A stretch of 45,379 nucleotides of DNA from Pedosphaera sp. (GTDB taxonomy: Bacteria; Verrucomicrobiota; Verrucomicrobiia; Limisphaerales; Pedosphaeraceae): the NCBI GenBank assembly GCA_028293325.1, contig JAQGPA010000138.1, positions 1 through 45,379 on the forward strand, read 5' to 3'. The notes under the pieces are model-generated. The model was not told the origin of the DNA and did no database searches. It worked only from the letters and a program-made list of their open reading frames with translations. The translations under genes and the position numbers were made by a program. Positions 1,502-34,732 of the stretch are shown here, piece by piece (positions within the stretch are counted from its first letter, which is position 1; the number at the start of each line of letters is the position of its first letter).

Positions 1502-1529
1502 TTGACGCCCTCCACCGCTCTGTTAGGGT
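1502..1529 (+). promoter_or_regulatory. candidate sigma70-type promoter (TTGACG - 16 nt - TAGGGT) for the leader peptide / DAHP synthase transcript
   Basis: TTGACG at 1502-1507 and TAGGGT at 1524-1529 read directly from sequence. The match to consensus is weak and untested. Confidence 0.25.
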
Positions 1530-1537
1530 TTGCCATA

Positions 1538-1624
1538 ATGAATTCGAGCCGCCTTTACTTTAAAAGCTGCTTTGCGGGCTGGTTTTACTTCAGCCCGGTA
1601 AGCTGGCGTGTGCGGCTGCGCTAG
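1538..1624 (+). CDS. 28-aa aromatic-rich leader peptide MNSSRLYFKSCFAGWFYFSPVSWRVRLR (putative attenuation leader for the downstream DAHP synthase)
   Basis: ATG 1538 lies 9 nt after AGGG. 8 of 28 residues are Phe/Tyr/Trp. The WFYF codons (1580-1591) lie in hairpin 1. The TAG stop at 1622-1624 is 22 nt upstream of an intrinsic terminator. The gene downstream encodes the first enzyme of aromatic amino acid synthesis. Confidence 0.45.
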   Translation: MNSSRLYFKSCFAGWFYFSPVSWRVRLR

Positions 1625-1673
1625 ACACCGAGAAATCTCAACCCAGCCGCAGGTCGCCACCTGCGGTTTTTTT
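1574..1673 (+). promoter_or_regulatory. attenuator RNA: hairpin 1 (1575-1581 / 1591-1597), possible antiterminator (1611-1618 pairs 1644-1651), terminator (1646-1654 / 1659-1666 + U7)
   Basis: Complementary segments read directly: cgggctg/cagcccg; tgcggctg/cagccgca; gccgcaggt/acctgcgg followed by ttttttt. The antiterminator and terminator are mutually exclusive because they share 1646-1651. Confidence 0.5.
1646..1673 (+). terminator. rho-independent terminator (8-bp GC stem, 4-nt loop, 7 U) immediately upstream of the DAHP synthase start
   Basis: ccgcaggt cgcc acctgcgg ttttttt. Confidence 0.6.
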
Positions 1674-1708
1674 GTGGAGACCGTGGCAGATTCGAACAAA
1701 TAGAAGTT

Positions 1709-2728
1709 ATGATTATTGTCCTTAAACCGAACATCTCGAAGAAAGACGAAGCTGCTGTCCTTAAGGAAATCAAGAAGCTCGGCTACAAACCGCATATCAT
1801 GCGCGGCGTCGCCCGCACCGTCATCGGCGCCATTGGCGACGAATTGACCCACCAATCCCTGGAAAGTCTCCCCAGCAACTTCCCCACGATCATCGAGAGC
1901 GTCATGCCGGTGCAAAAGCGCTACAAACTCGTCAGCCGCGAGGCCCATCCCGCCAATTCCACCGTGGACGTCCGCGGCCACCTCATCGGCGGCAAAAAAA
2001 TTCAGATCATGGCTGGCCCCTGCTCGGTTGAGAGCGAGAAGCAATTGCTCACCACCGCCCATGCCGTCAAGGCCGCCGGTGCCACCATCCTGCGCGGCGG
2101 TGCCTTCAAGCCCCGCACTTCCCCCTACGAATTTCAGGGTCTCGGCCTCAAAGGCTTGAAACTCCTCGACAAAGCCCGTCGCGAAACCGGCCTCGGCATC
2201 ATCACCGAATTACTCTCAGAAGATCACGCGGAAATGGTCGCCGAATTCACCGACATCATTCAAATCGGCGCCCGCAACTCCCAGAACTTCCAGTTGCTCA
2301 TCGCCGCCGCCAAGACCGGCAAACCCGTCCTCCTCAAGCGCGGCCTCTCCATGCGCATCGAGGAATGGCTCCTCGCCGGCGAATACGTCCTCTCCAACAA
2401 CAACCCGAACCTCATGTTCTGCGAACGCGGCATCCGCACCTTCGAGACCTACACCCGCAACACGCTCGATCTCTCCACCATTCCCATCATCAAGAAGGAA
2501 TCGCACTCGCCCATCGTCATCGACCCCAGCCAGGGCGCCGGTCGCGCTGACCTCGTCCTCGCCATGTGCAAAGGCTCCATCGCCATGGGTGCCGACGCCC
2601 TGTTGATTGAAGTCCATCCCAACCCGGCCGAAGCCTGGAGCGACGGCGCGCAACAAGTCTCCATCGAACTCTTCGGCAAACTGATGCGCGAACTCAAGCC
2701 CTTCATCGCCGCCGCCGGCCGCGAATAA
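1709..2728 (+). CDS. 3-deoxy-7-phosphoheptulonate (DAHP) synthase, class I-beta (KDO8P-synthase-like fold with N-terminal ferredoxin-like regulatory domain)
   Basis: 339 aa. N-terminal ~70-aa ACT/ferredoxin-like domain (MIIVLKPNISKKDEAAVLKEIKKLGYKPH) followed by a DAHPS/KDOPS catalytic barrel (GPCSVES, KPRTSPYEFQGLG, IGARNSQNF, CERGIRTFE, DPSQGAG). Length and layout match the Thermotoga-type AroG. TAA stop. Confidence 0.9.
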   Translation: MIIVLKPNISKKDEAAVLKEIKKLGYKPHIMRGVARTVIGAIGDELTHQSLESLPSNFPTIIESVMPVQKRYKLVSREAHPANSTVDVRGHLIGGKKIQIMAGPCSVESEKQLLTTAHAVKAAGATILRGGAFKPRTSPYEFQGLGLKGLKLLDKARRETGLGIITELLSEDHAEMVAEFTDIIQIGARNSQNFQLLIAAAKTGKPVLLKRGLSMRIEEWLLAGEYVLSNNNPNLMFCERGIRTFETYTRNTLDLSTIPIIKKESHSPIVIDPSQGAGRADLVLAMCKGSIAMGADALLIEVHPNPAEAWSDGAQQVSIELFGKLMRELKPFIAAAGRE

Positions 2729-3295: not shown

Positions 3296-3600
3296 GCCTC
3301 CTGGTTTGGAGTTCAAGCTTCAGCTTGTCCCCGCCTCGCCCCGCGCCAGCGGGAAGAAGGGCGCGCGGAATTTATTCCGCTTCACCTCAATCACAACCGA
3401 TGAGCTAACACTCGCAAGCCACGCTTTGCCACCCAACGCAATCCACTCCCCCAGTGACCCGTGCGGAAGCACTCGGACGGGAGAGGGCCGGGGTGAGGGT
3501 TCCGAAATTCTCCAATTCCGCCTTGTCCGCCATAGCCTTGGCGACGGTGGAACTCCGAATTCTACACTCCGAATTTGAATGCCCCGTGCGGAAGCACCTT
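3296..3600. repeat. near full-length copy (~300 bp) of the modular intergenic repeat element
   Basis: Contains all modules: ggagttcaagctt; gcgggaagaagggcgcgcggaatttattccgcttcacctcaatcac; gacccgtgcggaagcactcggacgggagagggccggggtgagggt; gtccgccatagccttggcga; and a second ccccgtgcggaagcacc. It aligns along its length with 8636-8962. Confidence 0.6.
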
Positions 3601-4504: not shown

Positions 4505-7500
4505 ATGTCACATGCTGACTTTGTCCATTTGCACCTGCACACCGAGTTTTCCCTGCTCGATGGTGCCTGCCGCCTTGACCGGCTCATGGACAAAGCCCAC
4601 GAACTTAAACTCCCTGCCCTCGCCATCACCGACCACGGCGTGCTCTATGGCGCAATTGATTTTTACAAGGCCGCGCGCGAAAAAGGCATCAAGCCCATCA
4701 TCGGCTGCGAAGTTTACGTGGCCCCCGGCAGCCGGTTCGACAAAAAGAGCAATAACGGCGGTCGCGACGTCTATAACCATCTCGTCCTGCTCGCCAAGGA
4801 TGAAACCGGCTACAAAAACCTCATCAAACTGGCCACCGCCGCCCATTTGGAGGGCTACTATTACAAGCCGCGCATCGATAAGGAACTGCTCGCCGCCCAC
4901 AAGGAAGGCCTCATTGCGCTCTCCGGCTGTCTCGCCAGCGAAATCCCGGAAAATATTCTCAAGGATCAGTTGCCCAAGGCCCGCGAATCACTCGATTGGT
5001 TCAAGCAAACGCTCGGCGCGGAAAATTTCTACCTCGAATTGCAGAACCACGGCATTCCGGAACAGGCCAAGGTCAATCGCCAGTTGATCCCCTGGGCCAA
5101 GGAGTTCGGCCTGAAACTCGTTGCCTCCAACGACGTCCATTACGTCGAGCAGGGCAACTCCCACGCGCACGACTGCCTCATCTGCATCGGCACGCAGGCG
5201 ATGCTCGCCGACACCAAGCGCATGACCTATGTGCCGGAGCAATTCTATCTGCGCTCCGCCGCCGAGATGAAGGCCCGTTTCAGCGAAACGCCCGAGGCCG
5301 TGCAAAATACCTTGGAAGTCGCGGAAAAATGCAACCTCGAGATCGAGTTTAACAAGCTCCATTACCCCGTCTTCCACCCGCCCGAGCATTTCACCCGTGA
5401 AGGTTTTCTCCGTCAACTGCTCGCGGAAGGCCTGCATCGCCGTTACACCATTCAGGCGGAAGCAAAAGGCCAGGAATTCATCATCACGTCCATTGCAGAT
5501 CCCACGCGACTGCCGACGTATCAAGCGCCGAATGAACCACCCCCTGCCAGCGGCTATGACCTTAACCATCCCGCCCTCGCCGCCGCCATCAAGGTGGTCA
5601 TCGACCGTTTACAGGTTGAACTCACGGTCATCGAAAAAACCGGTTTCATCTCCTACTTCCTCATCGTCGCGGATTTCATTCGTTATGGACGGGAAAAGGG
5701 CATCTCCTGCGTGGCTCGTGGTTCCGCCGCCGGTTCGCTTGTCACCTATCTACTCGACATCGCCAACGTGGACCCGATCCGTTACGGCCTCCTTTTCGAG
5801 CGCTTCCTGAATCCCGAACGCGTCAACCCGCCCGATATCGACATCGACTTCGCCGACGACCGCCGCGCCGATGTCATCGAATACGTCCGCAAAAAATACG
5901 GCAACGATTCCGTTGCCCAGATCGTGACCTTCGGCACGATGGGCGCCAAGTCCGTCGTGCGCGATGTCGGCCGCGTCATGGGCTTGAGCTACGGCGAATG
6001 CGACCGCCTGGCCAAGATGATCCCGACCGATTTGAAGATGGACTTGGCCAAGGCGCTGAAACAATCGCCGGAGCTCAAGACCGCTTACGACACCGAGGAA
6101 GTCACCCGCGAATTGATCGATACCGCTTTCGTGCTTGAGGACATCACTCGCAATGCCTCGGTCCACGCCGCCGGCGTCGTCATCGGCGATCAACCGCTCG
6201 TCAATCTGCTCCCGCTTAAGGTGGACGAGGACGGCACCCTGGTCACGCAATACGCGATGAACCCGGTCGGCGAACTCGGCCTGCTCAAAATGGATTTCCT
6301 CGGGTTGAAGACCCTGACCGTCATCCGCAACACCTGCGAGATGGTCAAGGCCACCAAGGGCATCGATGTCCCCATCGACAATCTGCCGCTCGATGACGCC
6401 AAGACCTACGACCTCCTGAATCACGCCCAGACGCTTGGCGTGTTCCAATTGGAATCCAGCGGGATGCGCGATTTGTGCCGCAAGTTTCAAATCAGCTCCG
6501 TCGAACACATCACGGCGTTGATCGCGCTCTACCGTCCCGGCCCGATGGACCTGATTCCAGAATTCATCAAACGCCGCCACGGCGAGGTGAAAATCGAATA
6601 CGAACACGCCTTGCTCGAACCGATTTGCCGCGAGACCTATGGCATCATGGTTTATCAGGAGCAGGTCATGCAAGCCACCCAGGTGCTGGCCGGCTACACG
6701 CTCGGCGGCGCTGATTTGTTGCGCCGCGCCATGGGCAAGAAAAAAGTCGAGGAAATGCAGAAGCAGCGCGACACCTTCGTGAAGGGTTGCGCCAAAACGA
6801 ACGGCATCGCCGCCGGCAAGGCCAACCAGATTTTCGATTTGCTGGAAAAATTCGCCGGTTACGGCTTCAACAAGTCGCACGCCGCCGCCTACGCCATCGT
6901 CGCCTATCAAACGGCCTATCTAAAGGCGAATTACCCCGTCGAGTTCCTCAGCGCCATGATGACGAACGACATGGGCGACACCAAGAAACTCGGCGAGTTC
7001 ATCAACGAAGCGCGCGTCATGAGCATCGAAGTGCTCCCGCCTGACGTCAACGAAAGTCAGATCGTCTTCGCCCCCGCGCGCAACGGCCAGGTCATCCGCT
7101 TCGGCATGGCCGCCATCAAAGGTGTGGGCGAAATCGCCGTCCAAAGCATTCTCGACGCCCGCAAACTGGCCGGCGAATTTAACACTCTCGCCAACCTCTG
7201 CGAACGCGTCGATATCCGCACCGTCAACCGCAAAGCCCTGGAAGCTCTCATCAAATCCGGCGCGTGCGACACCTTCAAGGAAACCCGCGCCACTTTGTTC
7301 GCGCAGATTGACCGCACGTTGACCCGCGCCGCCGGCATCATTCAGGATCGCCAGCGCGGCCAAAGTTCCATGTTCGGCATGCTCGAGGAAAAGACCGAGC
7401 ACAAGCCGGAGACCATCGCCAAACTGCCCGAATGGCCGCAGCACGAACTGCTCGCCGCCGAAAAAGAATTGCTCGGCTTCTACGTCACGGGCCATCCGCT

Positions 7501-8140
7501 CACGCCTTACGCGCCGTTGCTCCAGAAATACGCGCTCACGAACACCGCCGGGCTCGCGGCCCTGCCTAATCGCAGTCTGACCCGCATCGGCGGCTTGGTC
7601 GCGGTGGTGCAACACGGCGTTTCCAAAAAGAGCAACAAGCCTTACGCCATGGTCACGCTCGAGGATCTCGAAGGCTCCGTGCAGATCCTCTGCATGAACG
7701 AGAATTACGACAAATACCGCGAACTGCTGCAACTGAACAAAGCCATCCTGGTCGTGGCCGAGGTCAATACCGGCGACGACAAACCAAAACTCTTTCCGCA
7801 GGAAATGATGCCGCTGGAGGATGCGCCCCGCAAATACACCAAGCAGGTCCATTTCCGCCTCCACACCGGCCGCCTCGAACCCGACAATATCCTCTCCGTG
7901 CAGGAACTGGCGCTCGCTTACCCCGGTAAATGTCCCCTGTTCCTTTGCCTCACCCGCCCCACCGGCGAGATAATCTTTATCGAGACCCACGAGAAATTCT
8001 CCGTGGCTCCCTCCATGAAATTGCAGCAGGCCGCCGACGAACGTTTCGGCAACGAAACCTATTACGCCAAGGTGGACACCGCCTTACCCGAACGCACTCC
8101 GCGCCATTGGGAACAACGCCGTGGCAATGGCGACGATTAA
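4505..8140 (+). CDS. dnaE: DNA polymerase III subunit alpha
   Basis: 1211 aa. N-terminal PHP domain ([22 protein letters not shown]). Polymerase core and fingers ([22 protein letters not shown]). OB-fold C-terminal region. TAA stop. Confidence 0.97.
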
Positions 8141-8635: not shown

Positions 8636-8962
8636 GCCTCCGAGTTCGGAGTCCAAGCTTTAGCTTGTCCCCCAACCACCATCCCATCCGCAACAAAAGC
8701 AATCCGCCGCCGCCCGACGGGCCTGTGAGCTCCCAGAATCCCAAAATTTGCCAACGGTTATCCCCCGCCCCGCTTAAGCGGGAAGAAGGGAGCGCGGAAT
8801 TTATTCCGCTTCACCTTAATCACGACCGACAAGCAGAAACTTGCAAACCCCGTATCACCACCCGGCGCATCCCTTTTCCCTCTATGACCCGTGCGGACCC
8901 GTCCGCCGTAGCCTTGGCGAAGGGGGAAGCACTCCGACGGGAGAGGGCCGGGGTGAGGGTCA
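8636..8962. repeat. second near full-length copy of the modular intergenic repeat element (with a ~100-bp insertion relative to the 3296-3600 copy)
   Basis: ggagtccaagctttagcttgtcccc; gcgggaagaagggagcgcggaatttattccgcttcaccttaatcac; gacccgtgcgga; cccgtccgccgtagccttggcgaagg; gaagcactccgacgggagagggccggggtgagggt. Confidence 0.6.
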
Positions 8963-14094: not shown

Positions 14095-14814
14095 ATGAGC
14101 ACAGGAAAAAGCGTAATTGATTCGGCCAAGAAACAAGGGGCCAAGATGGTGGACGTGAAGTTTGTGGACACCTTCGGCACCTGGCAGCACTTTAGCGTCC
14201 CCATGGGCGAGCTGACCGAGGAAGTTTTTGAAGAGGGCTTTGGTTTTGATGGCTCCTCCATCCGGGGTTGGAAAAGTATTGAAGCCTCCGACATGCTCGC
14301 GATGCCCGACCCCAATACGGCCTTCATCGATCCCTTCTGCGCAGTCCCAACTTTGAGCCTGACCTGCACCATCGCCGAGACAGGCACCAAGGAGGCTTAC
14401 AGCCGCGACCCGCGCGGCATCGCCCAACGCGGTGAAAAATATCTCAAGTCCACCGGTCTGGCCGATACCGCTGTGTTTGGACCCGAGGCCGAATTCTTCA
14501 TCTTCGACAACGTGCAGTATGATTCCAAGAGCAACGGCACCTTCTACAGTGTTGATTCCGAGGAAGCCGCCTGGAACACAGGTCGCGATGAGATGCCCAA
14601 CTTAGGCTACAAGATCCGCCACAAGGAGGGTTACTTCCCGGTCGCTCCCACGGACACCCAACAGGACATCCGCACCGAGATGTGTTTGGTGATGGAGAGC
14701 CTCGGGATCAAAGTGGAACGTCAGCATCATGAAGTGGCCACAGCCGGGCAGGCGGAAATCGACTTCCGCTTCGACACGCTGGTGAAGACCGCCGACAACA
14801 TGATGCTCTACTAG
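14095..14814 (+). CDS. glnA: glutamine synthetase type I, N-terminal 239-aa segment ending at an in-frame TAG
   Basis: GS beta-grasp and early catalytic domain (MVDVKFVDTFGTWQHF, DGSSIRGW, FGPEAEFFIF). Ends ...KTADNMMLY-TAG. Confidence 0.9.
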   Translation: MSTGKSVIDSAKKQGAKMVDVKFVDTFGTWQHFSVPMGELTEEVFEEGFGFDGSSIRGWKSIEASDMLAMPDPNTAFIDPFCAVPTLSLTCTIAETGTKEAYSRDPRGIAQRGEKYLKSTGLADTAVFGPEAEFFIFDNVQYDSKSNGTFYSVDSEEAAWNTGRDEMPNLGYKIRHKEGYFPVAPTDTQQDIRTEMCLVMESLGIKVERQHHEVATAGQAEIDFRFDTLVKTADNMMLY

Positions 14815-14862: not shown

Positions 14863-15507
14863 ATGCCCAAGCCTTTGTTCGGGGACAACGGCAGCGGCAT
14901 GCACACCCACCAATCATTGTGGAATAAGGGCAAGCCGCTGTTCGCAGGCAAGGAGTATGCGGGCCTCTCCCAGATGGCCTTGTACTACATTGGCGGCATC
15001 TTAAAACACGCCAAGGCCCTGTGCGCCATCTGCAATCCCACCACCAACAGCTACAAGCGCTTGGTGCCGGGCTACGAAGCACCCGTGAACCTGGCCTACT
15101 CGGCCCGGAATCGCAGTGCGGCCATTCGCATTCCTACCTTCAGCGAGAGTCCCAAGGCCAAGCGCATTGAGTATCGCCCGCCCGATCCCGCGGCCAATCC
15201 GTATCTCGCTTACACCGCGCTCTTGATGGCCGGTCTGGATGGCGTGCTCAACAAGATTGATCCGGGCGAGCCCTTGGACAAGAACATCTATGAATTGCCG
15301 CCCGAAGAGTTGGCCAAGGTGCCGAACGTGCCCAGCAGCTTGGGTGAAGCGTTGGATTGTTTGGAGAAGGATCACGCGTTCCTCTTGAAGGGCGACGTGT
15401 TCACGAAGGACTTTTTGGAAATGTGGGTCACGCACAAGCGCAAGGAACATGATGCCCTGCGTCTGCGCCCCCATCCCTATGAGTTCTTCCTCTACTACGA
15501 CGTGTAG
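14863..15507 (+). CDS. glnA: glutamine synthetase type I, C-terminal 214-aa segment, same frame as 14095-14814
   Basis: [50 protein letters not shown], canonical C-terminus ...FFLYYDV. Between the segments the frame reads TAG-YVIKNVAR-TAG-HGKTATF, colinear with E. coli YKYVVHNVAHRFGKTATF. Confidence 0.9.
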
Positions 15508-15559: not shown

Positions 15560-15937
15560 CTGAGAATTAAAGAAACGCCTGATTTTATTAGGTGAACGTG
15601 GATTGTGAATAACTCGTGAATAAAAGTTAATATGTTGTCCTCGTAACATGAACACGATTGGAATAAAAAGTAGCACCTCGGTGAGATTTCGTAAGCTGTC
15701 GTTTACTCTCGAAAAGTGCGAACCGGGATTTTTGGGTCGGATTATACGTAAGTAATTGAAACAAATGAATTTGCGCAGCGTAATTAGAGTCACGGCAGCG
15801 GTGAAGAATGGGTCTACGATTGATTTTGTTGGTTTGCCGGCGAATTCGGATTATAAAAGCATCGCAAAGGAAGTGTTACAGGCTCGTTACGGGGTTAGGT
15901 GAATAAAACGCCCGAAAATAGGGCGAATGGGATAATA
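15560..15937. other. AT-rich region upstream of dnaA with DnaA-box-like motifs (candidate oriC or dnaA autoregulatory region)
   Basis: tgtgaataa (15604-15612) is the reverse complement of TTATTCACA, which fits TTATNCACA. Near-matches cgtgaataa (15616-15624) and ggtgaataa (15898-15906). GC content is visibly lower than flanking genes. Confidence 0.35.
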
Positions 15938-17299
15938 ATGATGCAATCTTCTGCCGATAAAGTCTGGACTGCAGCGCAACAACAATTGCGCTCCATGTTG
16001 AGTCCGGACACTTTCAATCTCTGGTTCGCCCCGCTGCGCGCACAGACCCTGGATGCCGAATGCATCACCCTCGAGGTCGCCAATGATTTCTGCGAGGTCT
16101 GGCTTAAGGACAACTACATGGGCCTGCTGCAGGACGTGTTGTCGCGTTCTTCCGGCCAACCGATGCATGTTAAATTCAAAGTCGTGCCGGGTGGCGCTGT
16201 TGTCACCGCGCCCATCACGCACGCCAGCCACGCCAAAGCCAAGCCCGCGGAAACCGCCACCGAGCGCACCTCCGCTGAACTCGCGTTCAATCCCAAAAAC
16301 ACTTTCGACAGCTTCGTCGTTGGCAATAACAATAATTTCGCCCATGCCGCCGCCATGGCGGTCGCCCAGGCGCCCGGCAAATCCTACAATCCGCTGTTTC
16401 TTTATGGCGGTGTCGGTCTTGGCAAAACTCACTTGCTCCACGCCATCGGCCAGCATGTCGTCAGCCAAAGAAAAGGCGCGCGCGTTTCCTACGTCTCCTC
16501 GGAAAAATTTACCAACGAGTACATCGACGGCATCCAGAACAACCAACTCGCCCGTTTCCGGAAGAAATATCGCCAGACCGAAGTCTTGTTGATCGATGAC
16601 ATCCAATTCCTGGCCGGCAAGGAACGCATCCAGGAGGAATTTTTCCATACCTTCAACGCCCTGCACGAATCGCATAAACAAATCGTCCTCACGTGCGACC
16701 GTCCCGCCAGTGAAATCCAAAACCTCGAGCAACGCCTCGTCTCCCGTTTCGAATGGGGTTTGGTCACGGATTTGCAGCCGCCCGATATCGAGACTCGCCT
16801 GGCCATCCTGCGGAAAAAAGCCAAGTCTCTCGGCGTGGAACTGCCCGAGGAGATTATTAATTTCCTGGCGCATCGCATTCGCGCCAACATCCGCCGCCTG
16901 GAAGGCGCCTTGATCCGCGTCGCTTCCTACGCCTCGCTGACCGGCAAGAAATTGAGCATTGAAGTCGTGGAAGGCTTGTTGCGCGAAGTGCTGCACGAAG
17001 AAGGCCGCTTTTCCATCAACATTGAAGTCATCCAAAAGCGCGTGGCCGAGCATTATGATATTCGCCTGGCCGACATGACCAGCAAGCGCCGTCCGGAAAA
17101 TATCGCCTTTCCCCGTCAGGTGGCCATGTTCCTCTCCCGCCAAATGACGGAAAGCTCCCTCAACACCATCGGTGAAGCCTTTGGCGGACGCGATCACGGC
17201 ACTGTCCTCCACGCCTGCCGGCTCGTCAAAGACCGCATGGAAGTGGACGCCAATGTCCGCCAGGTGGTGCAATATCTGGAAAAGCAGTTGCTCCGTTGA
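15938..17299 (+). CDS. dnaA: chromosomal replication initiator protein DnaA
   Basis: N-terminal DnaA domain I (VWTAAQQQLRSMLSPDTFNLWFAPL). AAA+ Walker A GGVGLGKTHLL and Walker B LLIDDIQF. C-terminal DNA-binding domain IV (VAMFLSRQMTESSLNTIGEAFGGRDHGTVLHA). The start is placed at the ATG ATG pair; the ORF track begins at an upstream GTG. Confidence 0.95.
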   Translation: MMQSSADKVWTAAQQQLRSMLSPDTFNLWFAPLRAQTLDAECITLEVANDFCEVWLKDNYMGLLQDVLSRSSGQPMHVKFKVVPGGAVVTAPITHASHAKAKPAETATERTSAELAFNPKNTFDSFVVGNNNNFAHAAAMAVAQAPGKSYNPLFLYGGVGLGKTHLLHAIGQHVVSQRKGARVSYVSSEKFTNEYIDGIQNNQLARFRKKYRQTEVLLIDDIQFLAGKERIQEEFFHTFNALHESHKQIVLTCDRPASEIQNLEQRLVSRFEWGLVTDLQPPDIETRLAILRKKAKSLGVELPEEIINFLAHRIRANIRRLEGALIRVASYASLTGKKLSIEVVEGLLREVLHEEGRFSINIEVIQKRVAEHYDIRLADMTSKRRPENIAFPRQVAMFLSRQMTESSLNTIGEAFGGRDHGTVLHACRLVKDRMEVDANVRQVVQYLEKQLLR

Positions 17300-33064: not shown

Positions 33065-34732
33065 ATGAACGAACCCAGCACCAGCATTTGGAAACGACAG
33101 ATTATTCCTGAATTGGGCGTATTCAGGTTCTTTCGCTGGCTTTTCAGTTGGCGGATGATTCGCCGCTATCTGTTCTGCCTCGCCTGCCTGGTCACGTTGC
33201 TTGCGCTGTTCTACGCCGAGGAAAACTGGCGCGGCAGGCATGCTTGGGAAAAATATAAGCGCGAAGCCATCGCGCGCGGTGAGCAGTTCAATGTCTCCGC
33301 CTTCATTCCGCCAACGGTCCCGGACGACCAAAACTTTGCCGCCACCCCCTTCTTCGCATCGCTCTTTGATTTCAAGCCTGGCACCCAGGAGGCCCGCGAC
33401 ACCAATGCAACCCGTCGCTTTGCGGAATTTCAGTCACACCATTACCCATCCCCAGCCGCCGCTGAATCAAAGGCTCCCAAGGCAACCCCGGTCAATAGCT
33501 GGGTCCGCCATCAACCAAATCTGCCGTTCTGGTATTCGGAATTTGTCCAATCCACCAACAAGGTTTCTCACTCCGCCTCTGACCTTGCGTTGACCAATGC
33601 CAGTCCTCAAGAAGCGGCACGTGACATCATGACCGCGCTGGCTTTTGCCAATCCGGTGCTGGACGAAATACGAACCACCAGCCAGCGGCCGGCTTCACGT
33701 TTCAATATCCGCTACGAGAACGATGATCCGGCGGCAATCCTGCTGCCGCATCTCGCCGGGTTGAAGGAAATCACAGTAATTCTGCAAACCCGCGCCTTCG
33801 CGGAGTTGACCCTCGGCCAGACGAACGAAGCCTTTGATGACTTGATCCTGTCACTCCGCATGACCGATGCGCTCAAGGATGAGCCCATTATCATTTCGCA
33901 ACTGGTTCGCTCTGCCCAATTGAATATTGCCATTTTGCCAATCTATCAGGGACTCGTGGATCACCAATGGACGGAACCGCAATTGCGGGCGTTGCAGGAA
34001 AAACTGGAGCATTTTGATTTTTGCAACGACGGCCAGCGCGCGCTCCAGTCGGAACGTGTTTTTTTTGGTGGCGGGATATTCGAATTCCTTCGGCACGCAC
34101 CCAGCAATTACAAGTTGCTTTTCTTCGTAAGTGGCGCACCAGATGACCAGCTAGGCGGTAATAGCATTTCGGGACAGGCCATCGGCTTTGGCATGGCCAT
34201 CGCTCCAAAGGGTTGGTCGTATTTTGAACAACTCAACTACACTCGCACCTACGGCGACTTGCTGCTGCCGATTATCGATTCCGAGAACCGCCGCATCAAC
34301 CCCGCTCTTTGCGCCAAGGCCGACCAGCAGCTCGGCGGCGAATTGAAACGCAGTCCTCGCAAGTTGTTCTTTCATCACCAGGTCTTTTCCGCCTTGTTGC
34401 TTCCCGCCCTGGCCAACATTGTTCAAAAAACGGCACGCACCCAGACCGCCGCAGATGAGACAGTGCTGGCGTGCGCGCTGGAGCGTTATCGCCTGGCACA
34501 TGGACAATTTCCCGAAACGCTCGACGCCCTCATGCCGCAGTTCATCAGCCAACTCCCGCACGACGTCATCAATGGCCAATCGTATCACTACCGGCTCACG
34601 TCCGACGGCCAATTCGTCCTCTATTCCGTCGGCTGGAATGAAACCGACGACGGCGGCACAGTTGCCACAACCACGACTGGCTCCACTGATTTCAAAAACG
34701 GCGACTGGGTCTGGCAATATCCCACCCGCTAA
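33065..34732 (+). CDS. hypothetical membrane-anchored protein (555 aa), probably exported; co-oriented with the sigma/anti-sigma pair
   Basis: N-terminal TM helix (YLFCLACLVTLLALFYA). No recognised catalytic motif. Confidence 0.5.
   Translation: MNEPSTSIWKRQIIPELGVFRFFRWLFSWRMIRRYLFCLACLVTLLALFYAEENWRGRHAWEKYKREAIARGEQFNVSAFIPPTVPDDQNFAATPFFASLFDFKPGTQEARDTNATRRFAEFQSHHYPSPAAAESKAPKATPVNSWVRHQPNLPFWYSEFVQSTNKVSHSASDLALTNASPQEAARDIMTALAFANPVLDEIRTTSQRPASRFNIRYENDDPAAILLPHLAGLKEITVILQTRAFAELTLGQTNEAFDDLILSLRMTDALKDEPIIISQLVRSAQLNIAILPIYQGLVDHQWTEPQLRALQEKLEHFDFCNDGQRALQSERVFFGGGIFEFLRHAPSNYKLLFFVSGAPDDQLGGNSISGQAIGFGMAIAPKGWSYFEQLNYTRTYGDLLLPIIDSENRRINPALCAKADQQLGGELKRSPRKLFFHHQVFSALLLPALANIVQKTARTQTAADETVLACALERYRLAHGQFPETLDALMPQFISQLPHDVINGQSYHYRLTSDGQFVLYSVGWNETDDGGTVATTTTGSTDFKNGDWVWQYPTR

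Follow-up and report, generated by a model that had tools for sequence, protein, structure and literature searches.

The window, a 45,379-nucleotide stretch of Pedosphaera sp. DNA (assembly GCA_028293325.1, contig JAQGPA010000138.1, positions 1 to 45,379), carries a short leader directly ahead of aroF, the gene for 3-deoxy-D-arabino-heptulosonate 7-phosphate (DAHP) synthase, which a preliminary description had interpreted as an attenuator sensing aromatic amino acids. Comparison with orthologous loci supports that interpretation: an aromatic-rich leader open reading frame (ORF), a hairpin over its aromatic codons (P1), an antiterminator and an intrinsic terminator are all kept in orthologs, and both alternative helices covary. 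As far as can be judged from sequence, it is very likely that we are dealing with a real conserved element of a known mechanism class, in a new lineage. The specific reading that we favor, and in which we have considerable confidence, is that of a ribosome-mediated leader-peptide transcription attenuator, which would adjust the expression of DAHP synthase to how much charged Phe-, Tyr- and Trp-tRNA is available.

An ortholog scan using one genome per species gave 80 loci with AroF at 78-94% identity, and the labels of these loci are nearly all Verrucomicrobiota, Pedosphaera or Limisphaerales. A lack of the leader ORF or of the hairpins at such loci would have spoken against the preliminary description. 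The opposite was found, with 73 of the 80 keeping the element, 70 of them complete upstream of aroF and three (L009, L019 and L034) clipped by the end of a contig. The full architecture, defined as a promoter, a start codon 5-9 nt downstream, an ORF of 8-45 codons and a terminator, occurs 56 times in approximately 525 kb, and all 56 instances are aroF leaders.

When the window is considered alone, the fold of positions 1530-1680 has a z score of -2.49, and the binomial probability of at least 8 aromatic codons among 27 is 3e-4. Across all six frames, the window has four runs of at least four aromatic codons, where two are expected. The Trp-Phe-Tyr-Phe (W-F-Y-F) run of the leader is by itself not significant within the window, and the significance of the putative attenuator rests on its position and on its conservation in orthologous loci. 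That the run falls within expectation is the point that speaks for pure chance, that is, for an accidental short ORF beside an ordinary terminator. The comparative data have already refuted this explanation, since the whole architecture recurs at the orthologous loci and is absent elsewhere, and we regard the probability that is left to it as negligible.

A conserved aromatic leader and its promoter

The leader ORF occupies positions 1538 to 1624 of the plus strand, on which all of the features of the element lie. It begins with ATG at 1538-1540, has 28 codons and ends with TAG at 1622-1624, and its predicted product is MNSSRLYFKSCFAGWFYFSPVSWRVRLR. Eight of its codons are aromatic (Y7, F8, F12, W15, F16, Y17, F18 and W23). 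Four of these form the W-F-Y-F run at 1580-1591 (TGG TTT TAC TTC), which we take as the candidate regulatory codons. The ORF, its eight aromatic codons and the run were all found exactly where the preliminary description had placed them.

The following leader statistics are based on 71 leaders, the window's own included. Leader length ranges from 20 to 32 codons, with a median of 28, and the frame is open in all 71, while stop codons interrupt the other two frames in 67 and 48 of the leaders, respectively. Phe, Tyr and Trp together make up 23.9% of the leader residues, compared with 4.9% of the residues in AroF and 7.7% in 21 genes of the window. All three aromatic amino acids are present in 66 of the leaders, and in the densest six-codon windows the ratio F:Y:W is 154:94:62. 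Runs of aromatic codons are found at the same place in the orthologs, typical ones being YFFYWF, WYYF, FYFYFW and WFYF, and Phe, Tyr and Trp codons interchange among orthologs as the nucleotide sequence changes. The stop codons vary as well (TGA in 31 leaders, TAG in 22 and TAA in 18), with a steady location approximately 85 nt before the aroF ATG.

Some residues outside the aromatic run are also conserved, namely an N-terminal MN(S) and an R/Q-F-S motif. A proline is often found two codons past the run (FSP, FWP or FGP), although it is not universal, as in locus L016, which has FTNA at this place. Codon usage in the leaders is skewed for Phe, with 80% TTT compared with 48% in the 21 window genes and 22% in aroF. 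A more general claim that the aromatic codons of the leaders are rare ones did not stand, as it holds for Phe only; the Tyr codon TAT is not enriched in the leaders (54% compared with 45% in the window genes). The excess of TTT could reflect selection for slow decoding, or it could simply be due to the U-rich loop of P1.

Upstream of the leader we identified a -35 hexamer, TTGACG, at 1502-1507 and an extended -10 element, TGtTAGGGT, at 1521-1529, the hexamer of which lies at 1524-1529. The pattern TTGAC-N16-18-TAnnnT precedes the leader start in 66 of the 71 loci, with the TG extension in 53 of these 66. This promoter-like pattern is rare, with 89 sites in the approximately 525 kb (both strands), mostly at these leaders. 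The distance from the -10 hexamer to the start codon is 6-8 nt in 54 of the 66 loci, and 8 nt in the window. As the -10 hexamer ends so close to the start codon, the transcript would begin at or next to it, and the interval between the two is too short for a Shine-Dalgarno sequence. We infer from this arrangement that the leader mRNA is leaderless, with its 5' end at the start codon (GTG in 45 leaders, ATG in the other 26). A scarcity of Shine-Dalgarno sequences has been reported for some Verrucomicrobia (PMC10783764). What the element suggests for the Verrucomicrobiota is a likely promoter consensus of the sigma-70 type, together with leaderless translation.

Alternative pairings between the leader and aroF

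The aromatic codons lie within hairpin P1, at 1566-1607 (-21.7 kcal/mol), where they occupy the loop and the 3' arm. The preliminary description had noted a hairpin over these codons formed by 1575-1581 and 1591-1597. The two strands, CGGGCTG and CAGCCCG, are indeed perfectly complementary, and they turn out to be the upper stem of the longer hairpin. Nearly all loci have P1, at a median energy of -15.8 kcal/mol and with the aromatic codons again in a U-rich loop and the 3' arm. Its stems vary in sequence (GGGCTG/CAGCCC, TTGGTA/TACCAA, GGCGAA/TTCGCC and GCGGT/ACCGC). P1 arms taken from the same locus pair better than arms mixed between loci (z = -5.1, 0 of 5000 permutations), and the minimum free energy of the leader ORF compared with codon-order shuffles has a median z of -3.4. 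The lower stem of P1 overlaps the antiterminator 5' strand (segment 2) in many loci, while in the window P1 merely abuts segment 2.

The terminator consists of a stem at 1646-1654/1659-1667, a CGCC loop at 1655-1658 and a T-run at 1667-1673, with a predicted energy of -16.0 kcal/mol. The strong terminator with a U7 tract that had been noted after the leader is accordingly present, as is the spacing given for it, the T-run being separated by 35 nt from the aroF ATG at 1709. The motif CCGCAGG..CCTGCGG occurs once in the 45-kb window. Among the 71 loci, 67 have a hairpin followed by a T-run, with energies of -9 to -26 kcal/mol, and the CCGCAGG/CCTGCGG core is nearly invariant, found once per locus and always before aroF. 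No separate aroF promoter is evident by eye in the 35 nt following the T-run, a stretch to which no dedicated promoter test was applied. Because of this, and because the T-run lies so close to the ATG, aroF is most likely dependent on read-through. The gene upstream of the element is divergent, encoding a SurA/PpiC-like protein (Pfam scan) at 276-1238 on the minus strand, so the plus-strand terminator ends no upstream gene's transcript.

Segment 2, at 1608-1618, ends 3 nt before the stop codon and pairs with segment 3, at 1644-1654, which is common to the antiterminator and to the terminator, where its partner is segment 4. The core of segment 2, TGCGGCTG at 1611-1618, is the exact complement of CAGCCGCA at 1644-1651, which bears out the mutually exclusive pairing proposed in the preliminary description. 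The extended duplex, 1608-1618/1644-1654, has a predicted energy of -16.4 kcal/mol. A corresponding duplex was found in all 67 loci tested (median -19.3 kcal/mol), always between the last 20 or so nucleotides of the ORF and the terminator 5' arm together with bases upstream of that arm. The median number of arm nucleotides that it takes up is 10, and the median distance from the end of its 5' strand to the stop codon is 3 nt.

Two leader subtypes can be distinguished by their 3' ends, ...CTTGCGGCTGCGnTAA and ...CCTGCGCnnnGGGCTGnnnTGA, and the helices shift register between them. For this reason we relied on permutation tests of pairing energy, comparing segments from the same locus with segments mixed between loci. 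Antiterminator segments from the same locus have -19.6 kcal/mol, compared with -17.4 kcal/mol for mixed ones (z = -7.8, 0 of 5000 permutations). Individual loci show covarying extensions of the duplex, such as GTTGAG/CTCAAC in L068, TTGGCT/AGCCAA in L054 and CTTCGGG/ACCGAAG in L067. In L072 and L077, an A to G change in segment 3 is matched by a T to C change in both segment 2 and segment 4, so that both of the alternative helices are supported. The near invariance of the core is explained by the need of the segment 3 strand to fit two partners.

The same observations bear on the possibility that the small ORF and its terminator stand on their own, as the gene of a small protein or as a trans-acting, terminated small RNA, with aroF expressed by constitutive leak and nothing being sensed. 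An antiterminator that overlaps the terminator 5' arm, abuts the stop codon and covaries would be purposeless in a stand-alone gene. Furthermore, every copy of the element immediately precedes a DAHP synthase gene, with none elsewhere in the approximately 525 kb, and the codon enrichment is specific to aromatic residues. We consider an independent unit unlikely, despite the conservation of the MN(S) and R/Q-F-S positions outside the run, the thermodynamic dominance of the terminator in all of the modelled states, and the precedent of Sinorhizobium rnTrpL/peTrpL, where a terminated attenuator RNA and its leader peptide are known to have functions in trans. A trans role could also exist alongside attenuation.

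Alternatively, the terminator might be switched by a small ligand, as in a riboswitch, or by an RNA-binding protein recognizing CCGCAGG and TGCGGCTGCG, the ORF being incidental. We consider this very unlikely, given that the frame stays open in every leader despite changes of length while the other two frames are closed, that aromatic codons replace one another while the nucleotides change, and that the start codon is at a fixed distance from the promoter. No match to a riboswitch, T-box or other Rfam family was found either: a scan of positions 1200-1800 of the window returned no family and two chance-level hits only (E = 3.8 and 4), and among six orthologous loci and four metagenome leaders (described below) nothing but a tRNA reached a gathering score. 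The sequence conservation of the terminator stem and of segment 2, which is unusually high for simple helices, and the conserved and structured P1 would suit a ligand or a protein. The dual pairing of segment 3, however, explains this conservation, and L072 and L077, with their triple compensation, show that selection acts on pairing.

A fifth conserved segment, GTGGAGACCGT at 1674-1684, lies directly 3' of the T-run. This segment and the apparently leaderless, often GTG-initiated leader are additions to the preliminary description. It is complementary to 1652-1660, comprising the end of the terminator 5' arm and the loop, or alternatively to 1663-1671. Pairing within loci is again better than pairing between loci at this segment (positions taken from L001-L080; z = -6.8, 0 of 5000 permutations), and in some loci the segment is a second copy of the terminator 3' arm, for example GTGACCTGC in L013. 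When the window is folded at read-through length, the antiterminator grows to 1604-1618/1644-1659 and 1663-1671 pairs with 1676-1684. A possible role of segment 5 is to lock the read-through fold or to expose the U-tract.

Proposed mechanism and its weighing

In the mechanism that we propose, the sigma-70-type promoter would start a transcript at or next to the start codon at 1538, and a ribosome would load onto the 5' end of this transcript without the help of a Shine-Dalgarno sequence. The leader would then be translated through the aromatic codons within P1. When aromatic aminoacyl-tRNA is scarce, we infer that the ribosome stalls at the W-F-Y-F run, with its footprint ending before position 1608; segment 2 would be free to pair with segment 3 once the latter is transcribed, no terminator would form, and transcription would read through into aroF. 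With charged tRNAs available, the ribosome would reach the stop codon and cover segment 2, segments 3 and 4 would pair, and transcription would terminate at 1667-1673. Allosteric feedback through the ferredoxin-like domain of the enzyme would form a second layer of control, as the preliminary description also supposed. We know of no Trp sensing by this domain.

The positions of the segments relative to a ribosome fit this classical attenuation model. If the A site holds the first codon of the run, the segment 2 core is fully free in 88% of loci, and if it holds the last codon, in 72%. When the stop codon occupies the A site, half or more of the core is covered in 61% of loci, and in the window the whole core is. 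The preliminary description had proposed folding the region with and without a mask for the ribosome, and the outcome is divided. For the window itself, equilibrium folding gives a terminator probability of 0.95 with the ribosome at the stop codon, between 0.37 and 0.95 with a stalled ribosome, and 0.51 with no ribosome, but most of the other loci do not switch.

Several of our results weigh against attenuation as we describe it. Across loci, equilibrium folding favors the terminator in every state, with medians of 0.94 for the stalled ribosome and 0.96 for the ribosome at the stop codon, and just 7% of loci switch. A co-transcriptional approximation, in which the RNA is cut before the terminator 3' arm, separates the states weakly, with segment 3 sequestered at 0.82 when the ribosome is stalled, 0.60 when it is at the stop codon and 0.65 when it is absent. 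Without a ribosome, segment 3 is still sequestered in 64% of loci. Pairing between segments 1 and 2, which would provide an anti-antiterminator, is not clearly evident in the window, where an outer pairing of 1545-1552 with 1612-1620 is seen only in a minimum-free-energy structure of low frequency. On a structure-agnostic MAFFT alignment, the column-based pairing signal is modest for P1 (58% compared with 35-52% in controls) and for the antiterminator (75% compared with 28-51% when the partners are slid), and RNAalifold recovers the terminator only, with 9 pairs. A GTG start on a leaderless mRNA works poorly in E. coli, and 45 of the 71 leaders would need just such a start. Finally, the element is missing in 7 of the 80 orthologous loci. 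L030, L044, L059, L069, L073 and L078 show no trace of it, and L058 (2300-2500) retains the promoter and the terminator and has lost the aromatic leader ORF. L039 (380-522), which is not one of these seven, is a natural variant that retains the leader peptide MIRCFARFSSFAGWFYYRAAGLRS and has lost the canonical terminator.

The modest column-based signal can be attributed to the shift of register between the leader subtypes. As equilibrium folding fails to give a switch, the decision would have to be a kinetic one, like that of other attenuators, with the antiterminator forming first.

The conserved peptide positions and the frequent proline two codons after the run raise the question of whether the nascent peptide itself might sense free aromatic amino acids in the ribosome, in the manner of TnaC, rather than tRNA charging being sensed. 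In sensors of the TnaC type, the free amino acid stalls the ribosome at the stop codon and blocks Rho-dependent termination, so that abundance induces. This is the wrong direction for a biosynthetic gene, as abundance would lead to stalling and stalling to read-through. The terminator here is intrinsic, not Rho-dependent as at tna, and a ribosome arriving at the stop codon would lie over segment 2. Conservation of the Pro and Ala-Gly codons can be put down to RNA pairing, because these codons make up the two arms of P1, and the proline is absent from L016. Sensing of this type therefore seems to us highly improbable at aroF.

An extension of the attenuator reading is that a single leaderless, often GTG-initiated attenuator of five segments integrates all three aromatic tRNA charges, with segment 5 adding a second function. 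We offer this only tentatively and regard it as doubtful in its entirety. Within it, segment 5 might, besides locking the read-through fold, expose the U-tract as an enhancer of aroF translation; the aroF mRNA has no Shine-Dalgarno sequence. If this extension is true, it would be the first attenuation system described in the Verrucomicrobiota, and one in which 70S leaderless initiation couples transcription and translation in this phylum.

Known systems, related leaders and neighboring genes

The closest known functional analogue, judging by analogy of function, is the aroR-aroF system of Corynebacterium glutamicum. According to PMC11802643 and PMC4046766, the aroR leader, with a Phe-Tyr-Phe run, attenuates aroF, stalling raises read-through of the terminator, and the response is to limitation for Phe, not Tyr (the primary study being Neshat et al. 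2014). Both systems have a short leader with consecutive aromatic codons before a DAHP synthase gene. The C. glutamicum leader, as described there, belongs to the Actinobacteria and has no Trp codon, while the leaders studied here belong to the Verrucomicrobiota and have longer, mixed runs of Phe, Tyr and Trp codons.

The enterobacterial pheL-pheA and trpL-trpEDCBA systems, for which the Yanofsky model was developed, share with our element a leader ORF, a hairpin over the regulatory codons, a terminator before a biosynthetic gene, and an antiterminator 5' strand that becomes hidden when a ribosome stands on the stop codon. They differ in that pheL and trpL have a Shine-Dalgarno site, sense one amino acid and precede terminal-pathway genes, whereas the leaders here are apparently leaderless and often start with GTG. 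The DAHP synthases of E. coli are instead under the control of the TyrR and TrpR repressors (PMC11802643). Attenuators from the Merino database have been predicted before aroA(I-beta)>tyrA in Thermus thermophilus and aroA(I-alpha)>tyrA in Vibrio (PMC1173090). Like our element, these are terminator/antiterminator pairs upstream of DAHP synthase genes; unlike it, they are from other taxa, and the cited source leaves the sensing mechanism unspecified and describes no leader peptide. What sets the present element apart from the known cases is its lineage, the mixing of Phe, Tyr and Trp in one run, a start that appears to be leaderless and is often GTG, and the fifth conserved segment. In a literature search to which the 2010 survey by Lopatovskaya et al. 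was external, we found no report of attenuation in the Verrucomicrobiota.

The mechanism is a textbook one, and what is gained is broader knowledge and annotation, not a new principle. One leader here combines Phe, Tyr and Trp codons for an enzyme of the common pathway. The loci offer a regulatory element that can be put to the test, for the entry step in the synthesis of aromatic amino acids, in a large and mostly uncultured group of soil and freshwater Verrucomicrobiota (Pedosphaera/Limisphaerales-like), and an RNA and leader-peptide family of approximately 70 diverse members, absent from Rfam, which should be useful for genome annotation.

A protein search with AroF for distant relatives gave, among the matches listed, sequences all of at least 83% identity. 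A scan of metagenomes by the terminator motif returned mostly generic terminators, together with six additional aroF leaders and four other leader-peptide attenuators. These four (L102, L147, L082 and L194) follow the same logic as the aroF element, and the CCGCAGG/CCTGCGG core common to them is a product of the design of the search pattern. Two of them, L102 (minus strand, 321-348 after reorientation) and L147 (minus strand, 751-778), have the leaders MNFCGADKFYFYFGYYFSTGLPVIR and MNLCLTDRFYFYFGYYFYTGLPVLR in AT-rich metagenome contigs. In each, a Shine-Dalgarno-like site is followed by the leader, by a GCCGCAGGC..GCCTGCGGC terminator and then by a class I-alpha (AroFGH-type) DAHP synthase gene. 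These leaders (MN..RFYFYFGYYF..GLP..) resemble the Verrucomicrobiota leader and likewise precede a DAHP synthase gene, but they differ in the AT-richness of the organisms, in the Shine-Dalgarno-like site and in the class of the enzyme. From the resemblance of the peptides, this looks like a relative of the Verrucomicrobiota leader placed on a different enzyme class.

In L194 (minus strand, 523-548 after reorientation), a leader with four consecutive Tyr codons, MSNMSRYYYYASSLCFTCGLKVG, is followed by a terminator, a tRNA gene and tyrS (TIGR00234). Based on the order of these features, this is probably a Tyr-sensing attenuator of tyrS, one that is not in Rfam. In L082 (minus strand, 8920-8945 after reorientation), the leader MKQMLNIWWWRNSFVKTGGWA, with three consecutive Trp codons (WWW), and a terminator are found upstream of a gene for a TrpB-like pyridoxal phosphate (PLP) enzyme on an AT-rich contig. 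The L082 leader scores below every Rfam gathering threshold.

The aroF gene of the window (1709-2728, plus strand) encodes a DAHP synthase of class I-beta that carries a ferredoxin-like regulatory domain at its N-terminus, a domain also named in the preliminary description. It matches Pfam PF00793 (DAHP_synth_1) and PF18152, and it scores 448.8 bits against NCBIfam NF006421, for which the cut-off is 335. Among the ORFs of the window scanned against Pfam, neither a further attenuator nor another gene of the aromatic pathway is apparent, and several, including one of 555 amino acids at 33065-34732, match no family.

Dispersed intergenic repeat modules of 30-60 nt, with 76-90% identity, flank aroF and its neighbors, at 1303-1450, 2781-2817, 3298-3339 and 3518-3575, and at 201-231 with 3473-3503. 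A concern raised at the outset was that 1313-1440 might be nothing more than a copy of a repeat. The modules lie upstream of the conserved promoter and its -35 hexamer, and so outside the element, and they are not conserved at the orthologous loci.

Two further features of the window may be mentioned. Glutamine synthetase is encoded in two adjacent plus-strand ORFs, the first (14095-14814) having Gln-synt_N and part of Gln-synt_C and the second (14863-15507) having the remainder of Gln-synt_C; the split may stem from a frameshift or an assembly error, or mark a pseudogene. The window also contains dnaE, at 4505-8140, and dnaA, at 15899-17299 on the plus strand, and because of the presence of dnaA it is probably near the chromosomal origin of replication.

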